Positions 2,469 to 54,289 of a stretch of 64,000 nucleotides of DNA are shown in pieces. Every line of letters begins with the position of its first letter. Position 1 is the first letter of the stretch. Position numbers and translations under genes: made by a program. The notes beneath the pieces are model-generated. The model was not told the DNA's origin. It ran no database searches and was given only the letters and a program-made list of their open reading frames with translations. Location of the stretch: assembly GCA_001004885.1 (NCBI GenBank), contig LCRX01000002.1, positions 14,043-78,042 of the forward strand, written 5' to 3'. This stretch comes from Candidatus Magasanikbacteria bacterium GW2011_GWA2_56_11. Its GTDB lineage: Bacteria; Patescibacteriota; Patescibacteriia; Magasanikbacterales; UBA922.

Positions 2469-2593
2469 GAACTCACAGCCAGTTTCCCCCCTTCGCCGAA
2501 ACATAGACTGGTTTTCGCGGCACCAAAACTCGCTCTTAGAGGCTCAGACATTGGCGTCGCGAAAACCAGTCTATGTTTCGGCTCAACTTAGGA
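2469..2593 (+). repeat. Family-A structured interspersed repeat, copy 1 (3' end diverged; supplies an SD to the downstream ORF)
   Basis: gaactcacagccag…aaacatagactggttttcgcggc…gtcgcgaaaaccagtctatgttt; shares the nested inverted repeats with copies at 7544, 29336, 51598 and 54139. Confidence 0.8.
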
Positions 2594-2605
2594 AGGAGGC
2601 CGGGT

Positions 2606-2950
2606 ATGATTTGGGCGACCGGACCCCCCTGGGGGGTCAAGTACGACGCCGGGAGGCGGCTGCTGGTCCTGGTCTTCGAACCGGGACAAAGTTTGCCGCC
2701 CCTGGCTTGGTTCGCCAATATGGGAGCCGTCAAGTGGGCCGGCTGGTCCCTAGAGGGACTGGTCTGCCTCTACGCATACACGCAGAGGAGGGGCGACGGC
2801 CGGGGGATAACGATGTGGGCCTTTGAGGTGGGGTCGGCGCGCTACTGCGGCCACGCTACCATGAGATCCTTCATCGAACCCTGGCCCGACGGGCTGACGC
2901 TGTTTTTTCGGGACGGCCGGGAGATCCGGTTTCAGGAGGCACCCGGATGA
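2606..2950 (+). CDS. Hypothetical small protein (114 aa)
   Basis: ATG 6 nt after GGAAGGAGG, which lies at the 3' end of repeat copy 1; no homology recognised; ends in ATGA overlap with a further small ORF. Confidence 0.35.
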   Translation: MIWATGPPWGVKYDAGRRLLVLVFEPGQSLPPLAWFANMGAVKWAGWSLEGLVCLYAYTQRRGDGRGITMWAFEVGSARYCGHATMRSFIEPWPDGLTLFFRDGREIRFQEAPG

Positions 2951-3079
2951 CAGCCGCAGACAACATTCAGGCGCTCACCACGACGGTCGAGCGCCTTACC
3001 ATTTTGGGGCTTGATTTTTGCCTTGCCGGCGTCTACAATAGGGCTGTTTATACTCTATGGCCGCCTTCTTTTTTGTGGT

Positions 3080-4432
3080 ATGGTAGAGACGTATATGCCA
3101 GACTCCGCGCGGACGTACCGCTACCATATTGTTACCTTTGGCTGCCAGATGAATAAAAATGACTCCGAGCGTATCGCCTCCATTCTTGGCGGCATGGGGT
3201 TAGAGCCAACCAATGACCCGAAAGAGGCGGATGTGGCCCTAATCAACTCCTGTTCAGTCCGGCAGAGCGCGGAGGATCGGGTTTATGGGCTGGGAGCGAA
3301 TTGGGTCGGGCTAAAAGCCGCCAAGCCGGAGCTAATCGTCTGTCTGACCGGCTGTATGCCCGGACGCGATAAAGACGGCCGGATGCGTTCGAGGCTGCCA
3401 GGGGTGGATCTGTATTTTCCCACCAAAGACATGGTCTATCTGCCTCAGAGGCTGGCGGAGATAAATCCTAATTTGCGGCCAATGGTGGATTTGGCCAGCG
3501 ATTACTTGAGCCTGCGCCCCACTTACCAGAAGACCTGCCAGGCTTATGTTACTATCCAGACCGGCTGTAATCACTTTTGTACCTATTGCGTTGTTCCGTT
3601 CGCGCGCGGACTGGAGGCCAATCGGTCTTTGCGGGACATTCTCGATGAGGTGCGCGCTCTGTCCGCCGGCGGGTGTCTGGAGGTAACGCTTTTGGGCCAG
3701 ATCGTAAACCATTACCGGGCGCCGGATCCGGAACATTTTTCGCGGCTGAACCCGTACGCCAAAAATGATTTTGCGAAATTATTGTGGGAAATCAACGAAA
3801 TCCCGGGTATTGCCCGCGTCCACTGGACCGCGCCGCATCCGCTTTATATGGACGCGGAGGTGATAGACGCCCTGACGCTGCCCAAGCAGGTGAATTATCT
3901 GCATCTGCCGGTTCAATCGGGGAGCAACGAAATTCTCGAGCGCATGAACCGACGGCATACGCGCGAGTTTTATCTCGAAGTTGTGAAAAAAATTCGCTCC
4001 AAAAGGCCTGACATCGCTTTGGGGACAGATATAATAGTCGGGTTCTCCGGAGAAACCGAGGAGCAGTTCGCCGCTACGGTCGCGCTGTACAAGGAATGCG
4101 ACTTTGATATATCATATCACGCCCAGTACTCACCGCGCACCGGCACGGTAGCGCACAATATTTTTCAGGATACGGTGCCTAGAGATGAGAAACGCCGGCG
4201 CTGGTGGGTACTGCAAAATTTGTTGGAAAGCACGGTCCGGAGGAAAAACCAGGCTTTCGTGGGAAAGGCTGTCGAAGTGCTGGCGGAAAGCAGCGAGAAC
4301 GGCTGGGTCAGCGGCAACTCCCGCGAGATGAAGCGGGTGCATTTTCCGGGCGGTCCGGAACTGGCGGGCACGCTCCAGCGAGTGAGCGTCGAGCGCGCCG
4401 AGGAGTGGATACTCTGGGGAAAGCCTGTTTAG
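3080..4432 (+). CDS. miaB: tRNA-2-methylthio-N6-dimethylallyladenosine synthase MiaB (radical SAM methylthiotransferase)
   Basis: YRYHIVTFGCQMN N-terminal MTTase domain; CNHFCTYCVVP radical-SAM CxxxCxxC; TRAM-like C-terminus; start chosen at METYMPD. Confidence 0.9.
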   Translation: MVETYMPDSARTYRYHIVTFGCQMNKNDSERIASILGGMGLEPTNDPKEADVALINSCSVRQSAEDRVYGLGANWVGLKAAKPELIVCLTGCMPGRDKDGRMRSRLPGVDLYFPTKDMVYLPQRLAEINPNLRPMVDLASDYLSLRPTYQKTCQAYVTIQTGCNHFCTYCVVPFARGLEANRSLRDILDEVRALSAGGCLEVTLLGQIVNHYRAPDPEHFSRLNPYAKNDFAKLLWEINEIPGIARVHWTAPHPLYMDAEVIDALTLPKQVNYLHLPVQSGSNEILERMNRRHTREFYLEVVKKIRSKRPDIALGTDIIVGFSGETEEQFAATVALYKECDFDISYHAQYSPRTGTVAHNIFQDTVPRDEKRRRWWVLQNLLESTVRRKNQAFVGKAVEVLAESSENGWVSGNSREMKRVHFPGGPELAGTLQRVSVERAEEWILWGKPV

Positions 4433-4448
4433 CAATCAACCATACCCT

Positions 4449-51753: not shown

Positions 51754-51830
51754 AGTCGGTATTAGACACTAGCCGATTAGCGCTCGGTCCTGTTTTGCGG
51801 GATCGGACGTTAATCAGTTAATGTTCTTCT

Positions 51831-52688
51831 ATGCCTGTCAAAAAGAACGGCGCGGCCGAAATGCCCGAATCGGCCGAGGCTAAGTCGATGCCCCCGGTCC
51901 GCCGCGGCGTCGCGGGTAACGGGTGTTGCGCCGGAGCGAGCGACGGCACGCGCAAATTAATGCTGACTTTATTAGGCATACTGCTCGTATACCTAATAGT
52001 TTTTTTCGGTACGCTTATACGCAACAATTTAAAACGCTACGATACCATCGGTCGCGTGGATAAATCCGAGCGGACTATAGTCGTCGAGGGGGAGGGCAAG
52101 GTGGCGGTTAAGCCGGACATCGCGGTTACTACCATGGGCATGATCGCCGAAGCCAAGACCGTGGCCGAGGCCCAGGAAAAAAATACGGCGGTCATGAACA
52201 AACTCCTGGAACGGTTGAAGCAGCTTGGCGTGGAAGAGAAGGACATCCAGACCACCAATTACAATATTTTTCCGCAGTACGATTATACGGATGACGGGCA
52301 GGTATTGCGCGGCTACCAGGTGAGCCAGAGCGTGGCGGTTAAAATTCGCGACACATCCAAGGCGAACCAGGTGATCGCCCTCGCCGGGGAAGTCGGGGTC
52401 AACGATGTGAGCGGCCTGGAGTTTACCGTGGATGATCGCGAACAGTACCGGAGCGAGGCGCGCCGGCTGGCGCTCGAGCAGGTGGCGGCCAAGGCCCGCG
52501 CTCTGTCCGAGGCGCTGGGCATCCAGATTCGCGGCATTGTCTCTTACAATGAATATGACGAAGTTGGCAAAGGCATGATGTACGACACTTTTGTCGAGAG
52601 CGTGCCAGCCGAGAAAGTTATGCCTGGCATCGAACCGGGCAGCACCGAGGTGGTGATGGACGTGAGCGTGGTATTTGAAATCCGTTAA
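51831..52688 (+). CDS. SIMPL-domain (DUF541) membrane-anchored protein
   Basis: N-terminal TM helix, then the SIMPL fold (…[14 protein letters not shown]…[10 protein letters not shown]…). Confidence 0.7.
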
Positions 52689-52753
52689 TACGGTCGCACC
52701 AGTTCGGGTGTATTTATGGAGCACCTTACGGTGCTCCATTATTATTTATTGAT

Positions 52754-54013
52754 ATGGCCAAAGCAGTGATTAAACATGTCGAAGGGCGGGAAATACTGGA
52801 TTCGCGCGGTAATCCGACCGTGGAGGCAACGGTGATCCTGTCGAACGGCGCTACTGGCACGGCCGCCGTGCCGAGCGGCGCTTCCACCGGCACGCACGAA
52901 GCGCTGGAGCTGCGCGACGGCGCCAAACGCTACGGCGGCAAGGGCGTGCTCAAAGCGGTCAAAAACGTCAATACGGCTATTGCTCGGATTTTAACCGGTA
53001 TGGATCCGCTGCGGCAGCGCGAGATTGACGGCGCGCTGCTGTGTCTCGACGGCACCGAGGGCAAAAGCAGTCTCGGGGCCAACGCGATTCTGGCTGTGTC
53101 CTTGGCCACCGCCCGCGCCGCGGCCATGAACCGTGGACTGCCGCTTTACCGGTATCTGCGCGAAACATTCAAACTGCCGGAAAAGAAGTGGCGGCTGCCG
53201 GTACCTACGATGAATATACTCAACGGCGGGCGGCACGCGGCAAACGGATTGTCGATTCAGGAGTTTATGATCGTGCCGATCCACCGCACGTTAGCCGAGC
53301 GGGTGAGAATCGGGGCCGAGGTTTTTCACGCGCTCTCCGGTCTGTTGCATAAAAAAGGCTTTTCGACCGGGGTCGGCGACGAAGGCGGATTCGCCCCCGA
53401 ACTCCAAAACAACGAACAGGCGCTCAAATTTATCATGCAGGCGATAAAGGAAGCCGGCTACGCGCCCGGCCGCCAAGTGGCTATCGCCCTCGACATCGCC
53501 GCGAGCGAATTCTATCGCCATGGCAAGTATTTTTTTGACAACCCTAAAGAAGGCTGGGGCGCGGATCAGATGATCGAGCTGCTCCAAAGCTGGATTCGTC
53601 GCTATCCGATCGTATCGATCGAGGACGGTCTCGCCGAGGACGATTGGGACAACTGGGCGAAGCTCACCAAGCGGCTGGGAAAAAACGTTACGCTCGTCGG
53701 CGACGATCTGTTTGTTACGAACGTGAAACGGATCGAACAGGGGGTCAAGGGCGGGGTCGCCAATGCGGTCCTCATCAAACTCAATCAGATCGGCAGCCTG
53801 TCGGAGACGATCGACGCCATCTATTTGGCGCGGCGGCACCGCTATCAGGTCGCGGTGTCGCACCGTTCGGGCGAGACGGCCGACACCTTTATCGCCGACC
53901 TGGCGGTGGCAGTCAACGCGGAGTTTATCAAGACCGGCTCGCTGTCGCGCTCGGAGCGGGTGGAGAAGTATAACCGGCTGATGAAAATCGAGACGGAAGC
54001 AGCCGGATTATAA
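52754..54013 (+). CDS. eno: Enolase
   Basis: [29 protein letters not shown] motifs. Confidence 0.95.
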
Positions 54014-54138
54014 GCCAAACCGGCGCCAGGGTTGGGGCCGCGCGGCTGGTTTTTGCGTTTGGGTCATTTTCGACTGTCGCCGCCTGGCGGTCCCCGGTTG
54101 TTTTTTTTCGTCCTTTGCTCTATAATAGCGGGTACTAT

Positions 54139-54289
54139 GAACTCACAGCGAGCCCCCCTTCGCCGAAACATAGACTGATTTTCGCGGCCCCAAAACTCGC
54201 TCTTACAGGCTCAGACATTGGTGCCGCGAAAATCAGTCTATGTTTCGGCTCGACTTAGGATAGAATTGCTGATAACTCACTGCCAGTTC
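54139..54289 (+). repeat. Family-A structured repeat, copy 5 (ends 2 nt before the gpmI ATG)
   Basis: gaactcacagcgag…aaacatagactgattttcgcggc cccaaaactcgctcttacaggctcagacattggtg ccgcgaaaatcagtctatgttt…aactcactgccagttc; preceded by TTGTTT-17-TATAAT. Confidence 0.85.

Follow-up and report, generated by a model that had tools for sequence, protein, structure and literature searches.

The window, a 64-kb stretch of DNA from an uncultured member of the Candidate Phyla Radiation (CPR) that lives in groundwater and has Candidatus Magasanikbacteria as its closest named relatives, contains five copies of a repeat family at positions 2469-2593, 7544-7700, 29336-29490, 51598-51753 and 54139-54289, as originally predicted. 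The inner 23-nt arm of the repeat gave 10 matches with no more than 3 mismatches, as compared with 0 in 100 shuffles, and the outer 16-mer gave 9 matches, as compared with 0.4 expected. Pfam assignments agreed with the gene context described in the original prediction: a small ORF and miaB, a pyrK-like gene and pyrE on the minus strand, and genes encoding LysM, SIMPL and GpmI proteins.

Copy 1 (2469-2593, plus strand) is truncated at its 3' end. It retains the left terminal repeat, the inner hairpin and the loop, ends after CTTAGGA and is missing the right terminal repeat. Upstream lies a -10 hexamer, TAAAAT (2452-2457), with the -35 sequence TTGACG (2429-2434) at 17-nt spacing; downstream, AGGAGG is followed by the ATG (2607) of the small ORF, itself upstream of miaB. 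Copy 2 (7544-7700, outer frame on the plus strand) is situated between the minus-strand pyrK-like gene (7704-8519) and pyrE (6895-7518). The loop core of this copy (7605-7628) is inverted and is in the sense orientation relative to the operon. Copy 3 (29336-29490, plus strand) begins 13 nt past TGcTATGAT (29314-29322; hexamer TATGAT at 29317-29322), with TTGACG at 29294-29299. Its flanks are ATC and ATT, and the LysM gene (29593-30075) starts approximately 100 nt downstream. Copy 4 (51598-51753, plus strand), flanked by AAT and AGT, lies within the SIMPL leader (gene at 51831-52688) and begins 12 nt past TGcTATACT (51577-51585; hexamer TATACT at 51580-51585).

Copy 5 (54139-54289, plus strand) has inner arms at 54166-54188 and 54223-54245 and begins 12 nt past TATAAT (54121-54126), which is preceded by TTGTTT (54098-54103). 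The ATG of gpmI1 (54291) lies 1 nt beyond the end of this copy, and its AUG abuts the outer stem. At the left junction, a 13-codon plus-strand ORF encoding MNSQRAPLRRNID (54137-54178) starts at the position of the original leaderless ATG and stops in the left hairpin arm; this ORF may be a by-product of insertion.

Several features that had been predicted for all five copies were found in most of them. The outer inverted repeat is present in copies 2 to 5 and incomplete in copy 1. The inner 23-bp inverted repeat is perfect in copies 2, 4 and 5, while copies 1 and 3 carry one to two mismatches per arm. All five outer frames share a single orientation, but the loop core of copy 2 is the reverse complement of the other four, a difference that the original prediction had overlooked. 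Similarly, the predicted pairing of the loop motif with the 5' arm is available to the other four copies, whereas the AGCGAGTT of copy 2 matches the 3' arm. A -10-like hexamer precedes copies 1, 3, 4 and 5, at distances of 11, 13, 12 and 12 nt, respectively, and three of these four promoters have TTGACG or TTGTTT as a -35 sequence with 17-nt spacing. No convincing -10 hexamer was found for copy 2.

Family architecture, flanking duplications and empty sites

The full sample comprises 20 non-redundant copies, 5 in the window and 15 on related contigs beside unrelated genes, and is phylogenetically narrow, in that most copies may derive from one species-level population and one copy, L044, provides the only clear second host. 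Within the host organism, 9 copies occur in approximately 103 kb. The element is 151 to 159 bp in length and has no coding capacity, all six frames being interrupted or no longer than about 40 codons; the only protein-database matches to the element were gene calls that run into it. In every full-length copy, 16-bp terminal inverted repeats are present, with GAACTCAYAGCGAGTT pairing with AACTCRCTnnCAGTTC. Between them lie asymmetric spacers and a near-perfect palindrome of about 27 bp plus 4 bp flanking a loop of about 24 nt, which holds a third, degenerate version of the terminal-repeat motif (AACTCGCT). Copies are approximately 90% identical across their whole length, spacers included. L044, which comes from a distant CPR genome and has diverged from the other copies, has kept the terminal repeats, the hairpin and an 11-nt spacing; its inner stem is wholly different in sequence, yet 95% complementary. 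Several assemblies break within the element.

The flanks were examined for target-site duplications, as had been proposed, and 3-bp direct repeats, which the original prediction does not mention, were present. Copy 2 is bounded by ATT (7541-7543 and 7701-7703) and copy 5 by TAT (54136-54138 and 54290-54292), the right copy of which provides the first two letters, AT, of the start codon of gpmI1. Identical 3-bp flanks were found in 11 of 19 full-length copies, as compared with 1.95 expected, and none of 500,000 permutations reached 11 (P<2e-6). The duplicated triplets (ATT, TAT, CAC, AGT, AAA, GTT and TTA) are A/T-rich and variable. The remaining 8 of the 19 copies have imperfect duplications, with the flanks of four of them matching at two of three positions; such imperfection is in keeping with copies that differ from one another by about 10%, yet makes the argument weaker for any single copy.

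Comparison of orthologous loci, also proposed earlier, revealed that the element is absent from three loci in relatives (gpmI1, SIMPL and recQ-PDDEXK). In eight relatives, gpmI1 is element-free and leaderless, with the arrangement TATA(A/C)T-N9-10-ATG. Removal of copy 5 and one TAT in silico yields TATAAT-agcgggtact-ATG, a TATAAT-N10-ATG arrangement that matches the leaderless gpmI start of the relatives, and the spacer left by this excision resembles that of the relative L096 (AGTGGGTATT vs AGCGGGTACT). In L096 and L097, SIMPL is preceded by the same TGnTATACT promoter and by an element-free leader of approximately 80 nt; the recQ-PDDEXK spacer in L110 is 31 nt and empty. A search of 886 kb of the relatives' loci recovered no copies other than L044, and no presence/absence polymorphism within the population was seen in the few duplicate assemblies.

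These data suggest that the repeats are, with high probability, copies of a non-autonomous DNA transposon (miniature inverted-repeat transposable element [MITE]) with an unusual, promoter-proximal mode of insertion. Of the origins first suggested, a MITE that targets A/T-rich, promoter-like sites is thus the one favored by the terminal inverted repeats, the 3-bp duplications, the empty orthologous sites and a fixed spacing of 10 to 13 nt from pre-existing -10 boxes.

Spacing from promoters and orientation of the loop

A TAnnnT hexamer ends 10 to 13 nt before the left end of 13 of 18 copies, or 15 of 20 when L106a and L044 are added (P=5e-13 for 15 of 20). By comparison, 4% of positions overall, and 8.2% of those between genes, have such a hexamer at this distance. 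In copy L011, the same 12-nt spacing from a promoter (TTGTCG-17-TATAGT) was observed, but measured at the right end. The duplicated triplet usually lies 7 to 10 nt past a sigma-70-type -10 hexamer and the element start 10 to 13 nt past it, which would place the insertion point at roughly +2 to +7 of the transcript. This spacing holds both where the native leader is absent, as in leaderless gpmI1 and a glycosyltransferase gene, and where it is 80 to 100 nt long.

The promoters appear to be targets of the element and not its cargo, since the same promoters pre-exist in element-free relatives. The suggestion that the family is a mobile promoter or 5'-UTR cassette therefore finds no support: each promoter belongs to the target gene itself, and identical -10 boxes occur in relatives that lack the element. 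Within copies 4 and 5, no two-hexamer promoter match was found; the sole such match lies at the right end of copy 2, on the minus strand (CTGACA-18-TATCCT).

The loop is flipped in three copies: copy 2, L009b and L011. Outside the loop, these copies are 91 to 94% identical to their nearest normal copy, as compared with 83 to 86% to other flipped copies. As judged from these sequences, inversion of the loop has taken place on three or more independent occasions. Loop orientation follows the direction of transcription in 19 of 19 unambiguous copies, and all copies seen to be antisense to transcription have an inverted loop. The association between loop state and orientation relative to genes (Fisher P=0.006, or 0.016 with L009b counted against it) is based on just two unambiguous antisense copies, L009b being in a divergent promoter region that is readable both ways. 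The pattern points to some constraint on which strand of the loop is transcribed. Template switching inside the palindrome, or recombination there, could produce the inversion. An invertase-driven, invertible promoter switch was considered and rejected, as such switches invert a promoter-carrying segment of roughly 100 bp or more, the inverted core here is a stretch of about 24 nt inside the hairpin, and no recombinase was found among the neighboring genes.

Predicted RNA structure and alternative explanations

The element is predicted to fold into a long, rod-like hairpin (-69 to -81 kcal/mol), with a stability well beyond that of shuffled sequences (z about -10). Compensated stem changes within the family include UA to GC, AU to GC and GC to AU. 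No terminator was found after the element, which argues that it is not a self-contained sRNA gene; copies are very probably transcribed as 5' leaders.

The fixed spacing could reflect either targeting or selection after insertion, which are not separable from sequence alone. There is some possibility, which we rate well below even, that the family arose as a MITE but is now a domesticated 5'-leader module, its copies being kept since the hairpin helps the host, with position and the sense-loop rule produced by selection and not by transposase targeting. The hairpin might serve as a shield of the 5' end from RNase J, as an RNase III processing site or as a site for regulator binding via the loop. 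For such a role speak the pairing of the 5' terminal repeat with the 3' one, which would bring the 5' end of the transcript into a helix no more than about 5 nt from the start, and a loop that is conserved like the stems (identity of 0.90 vs 0.93) and whose orientation tracks transcription. Maintenance of the hairpin through compensated changes, the distant L044 included, also favors it, but such changes can come from template switching within the palindrome, with no selection on RNA. CPR bacteria keep RNase J, RNase III and PNPase (PMC12641178), and Correia and ERIC elements alter mRNA fate via RNase III or RNase E (PMC10969869; PMC2649163), which further count toward this explanation. However, the downstream genes share nothing, the same genes are element-free in relatives, and a target preference is a simpler explanation than positive selection acting at more than 15 independent sites.

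Starts a few nucleotides past -10 boxes, sense orientation and the strength of folding would also be expected of a regulon-wide cis-regulatory RNA (riboswitch, thermometer or protein-binding leader) or of independent sRNA genes, each with its own promoter, and an origin as sRNAs or cis-regulatory leaders had been among the initial suggestions. That these sequences are not mobile DNA is very improbable, and the explanation is largely refuted by the 3-bp duplications, the terminal inverted repeats and the absence of the element at orthologous positions. In addition, identity of about 90% extends to the spacers, unlike in independently evolving leaders; a search of Rfam gave no match at gathering thresholds and only sub-threshold hits to generic miRNA hairpins; and the downstream genes have no common function (glycolysis, LysM, miaB, glycosyltransferases, a histidine kinase and recQ neighbors).

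Movement as single-stranded DNA by an HUH/Y1 enzyme, as for REP/RAYT- or IS200/IS605-derived palindromes, with the hairpin as recognition structure and the strand bias due to replication, is the least credible explanation: although the hairpin is long and perfect and the five window copies share an outer orientation on uniformly positive GC skew, such elements lack the target duplications and terminal inverted repeats present here, and outer orientation agrees with the sign of GC skew in 13 of 19 copies, as compared with 16 to 17 of 19 for gene direction.

Comparison with known elements and proposed mechanism

Five groups of known systems come closest to the probable MITE family described here. 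Like Correia elements (CREE/NEMIS) of Neisseria, it is non-coding, ends in inverted repeats, duplicates a short target and is present in many copies, often beside or inside transcription units, Correia elements being about 100 to 155 bp. Correia hairpins are cotranscribed, serve as RNase III substrates and alter the expression of neighboring genes (PMC2649163, PMC10969869). The two have no sequence similarity; the CPR element duplicates 3 variable, A/T-rich base pairs, whereas Correia elements duplicate TA. Identity with a Correia element was rejected on the same duplication and on terminal sequence, which differs from the 26-bp Correia repeat. Further, Correia elements make promoters at their own ends, while the present element lands 10 to 13 nt past a pre-existing -10 hexamer. 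To our knowledge, Correia elements have not been described as containing a perfect inner palindrome whose loop can invert.

ERIC/IRU elements of enterobacteria and Yersinia are likewise imperfect palindromes, of about 127 bp, limited to transcribed intergenic regions. The orientation of ERIC elements relative to transcription alters the fate of the mRNA, in that an RNase E site is unmasked (PMC10969869), an effect that parallels the orientation constraint proposed here. The sequences are unrelated, and ERIC orientation varies freely, whereas the strand of the loop in the present family appears to be corrected by inversion. We know of no report of a fixed distance between ERIC elements and promoters.

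MITEs of the IS5/PIF-Harbinger-type (Tourist-like), IS3 and IS30 families have 3-bp duplications, short terminal inverted repeats and A/T-rich targets near genes, all of which the present element shares. Its triplets fall outside the TNA/TWA rule that holds for the IS1031/Harbinger groups, and its termini are GA...TC, in contrast to the TG...CA of IS3. Yeast Ty3 inserts within a few nucleotides of RNA polymerase III transcription starts, guided by the promoter in place of a simple target sequence. The likeness is one of targeting only, by analogy; Ty3 belongs to the eukaryotic LTR retrotransposons, depends on TFIIIB for guidance and has neither homology nor chemistry in common with the present element. 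In the "minute inversions" of chloroplast hairpin loops and the flip/flop hairpins of parvoviruses, a short loop between perfect inverted repeats occurs in both orientations through recurrent inversion. Those inversions are regarded as neutral or linked to replication, while loop state here correlates with the direction of transcription. The present family is a new candidate MITE family that has unusual promoter-proximal targeting and no Rfam counterpart.

In the proposed mechanism, a DDE-type transposase acting in trans would mobilize the element. Neither a transposase gene nor an autonomous element bounded by the same terminal repeats turned up in approximately 100 kb of the host (the window plus about 40 kb of further contigs) or at the other loci. 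The transposase would choose its site by some feature of promoter DNA; purifying selection alone would not yield a spacing confined to 4 nt in long leaders. Transcribed from the host promoter, the element would then form the 5' end of the mRNA and fold into the long hairpin, and processing of this hairpin by RNase III is possible, by analogy with Correia elements. Through insertion, genes that are leaderless or have short leaders would acquire long, structured ones, and the 3' ends of upstream ORFs would be rewritten. More speculatively, the transposition machinery may itself read promoters, integrating at +2 to +7, one helical turn past the -10 hexamer, in either orientation, with recurrent loop inversion restoring the required sense loop; the family would then act as a 5'-leader module, mobile and able to correct itself, by which leaderless genes are rewired in the streamlined genomes of CPR bacteria.

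Copies of the repeat and evidence for a MITE

The original prediction of five copies of a structured repeat in the window was borne out. The copies were alignable across about 155 nt, and the gene context proposed for them agreed with Pfam annotation: w1 (2469-2593) by a small ORF and miaB, w2 (7544-7700) among the pyr genes, w3 (29336-29490) by the LysM protein gene, w4 (51598-51753) by the SIMPL protein gene and w5 (54139-54289) by gpmI1. Copy w1 ends after CTTAGGA, and its right end is missing. The inner 23-nt arm had ten window matches at ≤3 mismatches as against none in 100 shuffles, and the outer 16-nt repeat had nine as against 0.4 expected. 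A single orientation had been proposed for all five copies; this held for the outer frame set by the terminal repeats, but not for the loop core, since that of w2 is the reverse complement of the core in the other four copies. The core motif of the terminal repeat, AACTCGCT, also occurs alone at 7749-7760, 49 nt beyond the right end of w2 and within a pyrK-like gene, and may be there by chance.

A set of 20 non-redundant copies was compiled, the window five included. A gapped DNA pattern run against metagenome contigs yielded nine non-redundant copies. Comparison of six-frame peptides of the element with proteins identified gene calls running into copies and gave four more; one gene call that reaches into a copy is an NCBI Magasanikbacteria protein. 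Extension of the window contig gave one more copy, and a profile search of loci added L044, a diverged member from a distant CPR genome with a gpmI at only 51% identity. GTDB representative genomes scanned for an exact 25-mer gave 0 matches, as did viral contigs in two scans, and a covariance model and nhmmer profile applied to 0.9-1.2 Mb of relatives' loci returned the L044 member alone. JGI contig L106 (Ga0208246_1000166) carries w5 at 2305-2454 with the exact search pattern, yet it was missed by the metagenome DNA scan. Because the window's own region seems masked in that collection, copy counts from the scan are lower bounds.

The gpmI protein of the window (GC = 56.6%) was also found on Rifle-type groundwater metagenome contigs (PRJNA268031, ANAN16-1, JGI 3300025308). 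The closest relatives among genomes by gpmI, at ≤73% identity, belong to Candidatus Magasanikbacteria and other Patescibacteria. Since no database gpmI homologue falls between 73% and 99% identity, the majority of copies may come from one species-level population. Nine copies were present in about 103 kb of the window organism, or about one per 11 kb, which extrapolates genome-wide to the order of 100 copies and >1% of a ~1-Mb genome. Four independent metagenome assemblies (L013, L014, L095 and L108) terminate inside w5, within its first 45-135 nt; the element fragments metagenome assemblies of the window organism.

The ends of the element, located with the terminal-repeat pattern GAACTCAYAGCGAGTT ... 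AACTCRCTNNCARTTC, form inverted repeats in which GAACTCAYAGCGAGTT pairs with AACTCRCTnnCAGTTC. Of 19 full-length copies, 11 had identical 3-bp direct repeats at their flanks, as against 1.95 expected from permuted flanks, and 0 of 500,000 flank permutations reached 11 identical pairs. The element has no coding capacity, and the genes downstream of its copies are mutually unrelated.

Comparison of orthologous loci in relatives, suggested in the original prediction as a way of finding empty sites, revealed them at gpmI1, SIMPL and recQ-PDDEXK. In eight Magasanikbacteria-type relatives (L015, L019, L020, L021, L026, L027 and L097, each at about 6000, and L096 at about 4080), gpmI1 is leaderless, with the arrangement TATA(A/C)T-N9-10-ATG, and lacks the element. 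Removal of w5 plus one TAT from the window sequence leaves TATAAT-AGCGGGTACT-ATG, which resembles the TATACT-AGTGGGTATT-ATG of L096. The TGnTATACT promoter of SIMPL is shared by L096 and L097, where the ~80-nt leader lacks the element, and the recQ-PDDEXK spacer in L110 is 31 nt. Across 886 kb of relatives' loci, no copy was found except that in L044.

No full-length IS bearing these terminal repeats was found in the window or the compared loci, and no transposase was detected by Pfam on unannotated window ORFs or in the gene tables of neighbouring contigs. An Rfam search, also proposed earlier, gave no match at gathering thresholds over the whole window, and E-value mode applied to two copies gave sub-threshold miRNA-hairpin matches only. 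A riboswitch-like leader, a REP/RAYT-type element and an invertase switch were all rejected by membership tests. By every testable criterion but a cognate full-length partner, the element is a MITE.

Insertion position relative to promoters

A -10-like hexamer had been predicted upstream of every window copy. This was observed for four of the five, in which the element begins 11-13 nt after a TAnnnT, three of them with a -35-like hexamer at 17-nt spacing; nothing convincing precedes w2. Across the full set, 15 of the 20 copies have their left end 10-13 nt past the end of a TAnnnT hexamer; in the same organism, the background is 4% over all positions and 8.2% for intergenic ones (binomial P ~5e-13). 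The hexamer is frequently TGnTATAMT, with a -35 at 17 nt in several copies, and the duplicated triplet falls near +2 to +7, counted from the expected transcription start.

This spacing was unchanged where the native leader is absent (gpmI1, and the glycosyltransferase gene of L004, with the empty site TATAGT-N7-ATG), where it is short (the CAP-domain gene of L099b, whose ATG lies 9 nt past the element) and where it spans 80-100 nt (SIMPL and LysM). The L011 copy likewise lies 12 nt from a good promoter, TTGTCG-17-TATAGT, but when measured at its right end. The L044 copy, upstream of eno, follows TGtTATAGT by 11 nt, and no copy in the window organism occupies this site. The exceptions were w2, which sits in a spacer inside an operon; L007, whose insertion interrupts a TATAAT; L008, downstream of lepA; and L099a, 6 nt past TAAAAT.

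Because the same promoters are present in relatives without the element, they are targets and not cargo. We infer that the transposition machinery prefers some property of promoter DNA, since selection alone would not give a 4-nt window within long leaders. Targeting of a "pseudo-end", in which an extended -10 resembles TGCTAATAAC 14 nt from the right tip, fits the spacing poorly. An outward or internal promoter that re-creates a short leader was likewise unsupported: a strict two-hexamer scan found none in w4 or w5, and at the right end there is only TTGCTR, a weak -35-like motif that lines up with a -10 in a single copy, L007.

Several other features of these loci were observed. In this CPR clade, glycolytic genes look leaderless; the window eno (52740-52756) reads TATTAT-N8-ATG. 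Two tandem paralogues of cofactor-independent phosphoglycerate mutase (54291-55865 and 55943-57520) share about 41% identity, and this pair and the gap-pgk-SIMPL-eno order are kept across Magasanikbacteria-type relatives (L015-L040). In L044, both gpmI paralogues are followed by copies of another hairpin (AGAATTTGGAATCTGGAATTTAGAAT with its complement; 7572-7597, 7631-7654, 9252-9277 and 9310-9327), which may represent a family of terminator-like repeats. The sole window stretch with negative GC skew, 43075-49137, is occupied by a single ORF of 2020 residues that has fibronectin type III and Big_13 domains.

Hairpin structure and loop inversion

The RNA of the element is predicted to fold as a rod, at -69 to -81 kcal/mol (z ~-10). 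Compensated changes preserve the inner stem within the family, and the inner stem of the L044 member, of other sequence, is still 95% complementary. Maintenance of the stem fits selection on the hairpin and also arm-to-arm correction inside the palindrome. The terminal-repeat motif occurs a third time, in degenerate form, within the loop, where it is complementary to the 5' arm. An arm-loop pseudoknot is not claimed, because arm variants in w1, w5, L009b and L011 are uncompensated in the loop.

The loop is inverted in three copies, w2, L009b and L011. Outside the loop, each of these is nearest a different normal copy (91-94% identity, as against 83-86% to other flipped copies). Thus, the loop has inverted at least three times, and a single flipped subfamily is ruled out. 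Normal-loop copies were sense to their flanking genes in 17 of 17 cases. In both w2 and L011 the outer frame is antisense to both neighbours and the loop is flipped; L009b, flanked by divergent genes, is ambiguous. Loop state was associated with gene direction (Fisher P 0.006, or 0.016 with L009b counted against). Replication-strand bias was rejected as the main correlate of orientation, as agreement with GC skew was 13:6 versus near-complete agreement with gene direction. The simplest reading of this small sample is a constraint on which loop strand gets transcribed.

Likely consequences for host genes, and significance

Transcription from host promoters is expected to place the element at the 5' end of the mRNA, as its first ~155 nt, and the gpmI1 start codon would now adjoin the outer stem. 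At the left junction of w5, the target duplication preserves the original leaderless ATG, which opens a 13-codon ORF (54137-54178; MNSQRAPLRRNID*) that stops within the left hairpin arm. Only 4 of the 36 genes called in the window organism have a Shine-Dalgarno-like motif upstream, so the lack of one downstream of the element is unremarkable. Correia and ERIC elements suggest by analogy that the long dsRNA could be a substrate of RNase III or alter mRNA stability (PMC2649163, PMC10969869). RNase III and RNase J are retained in CPR bacteria (PMC12641178).

Insertions also rewrite the 3' ends of upstream ORFs. The recQ stop TGA consists of a flank T and an element GA (L099 15939-15941), and the methyltransferase call UY92_C0004G0039 at NCBI (L099 10001-10765) extends into the element by about 130 nt, which makes the C-terminus annotated for it MITE-derived. 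As a practical matter, some public CPR proteins have annotated C-termini derived from a MITE.

Correia and ERIC elements are the most similar in working; the window element differs from them in its sequence, 3-bp duplication, fixed distance to pre-existing -10 boxes and invertible loop. No description of a MITE in CPR bacteria was found in literature searches. As a class, the element is ordinary; its promoter-proximal targeting and transcription-linked loop state are out of the ordinary. CPR (Patescibacteria) genomes are small and streamlined, and the MITE density here is ~1 per 11 kb. The precision of insertion gives, for a lineage that cannot be cultivated, a natural data set of where promoters lie; it may also reveal a new mode of target choice by a bacterial transposon. 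Because leaderless genes gain ~155-nt structured leaders without a Shine-Dalgarno sequence, the insertions are natural experiments on translation initiation in bacteria that rarely use such motifs, and the linkage of loop inversion to transcription direction provides a small example of structure-mediated correction of sequence that can be tested.
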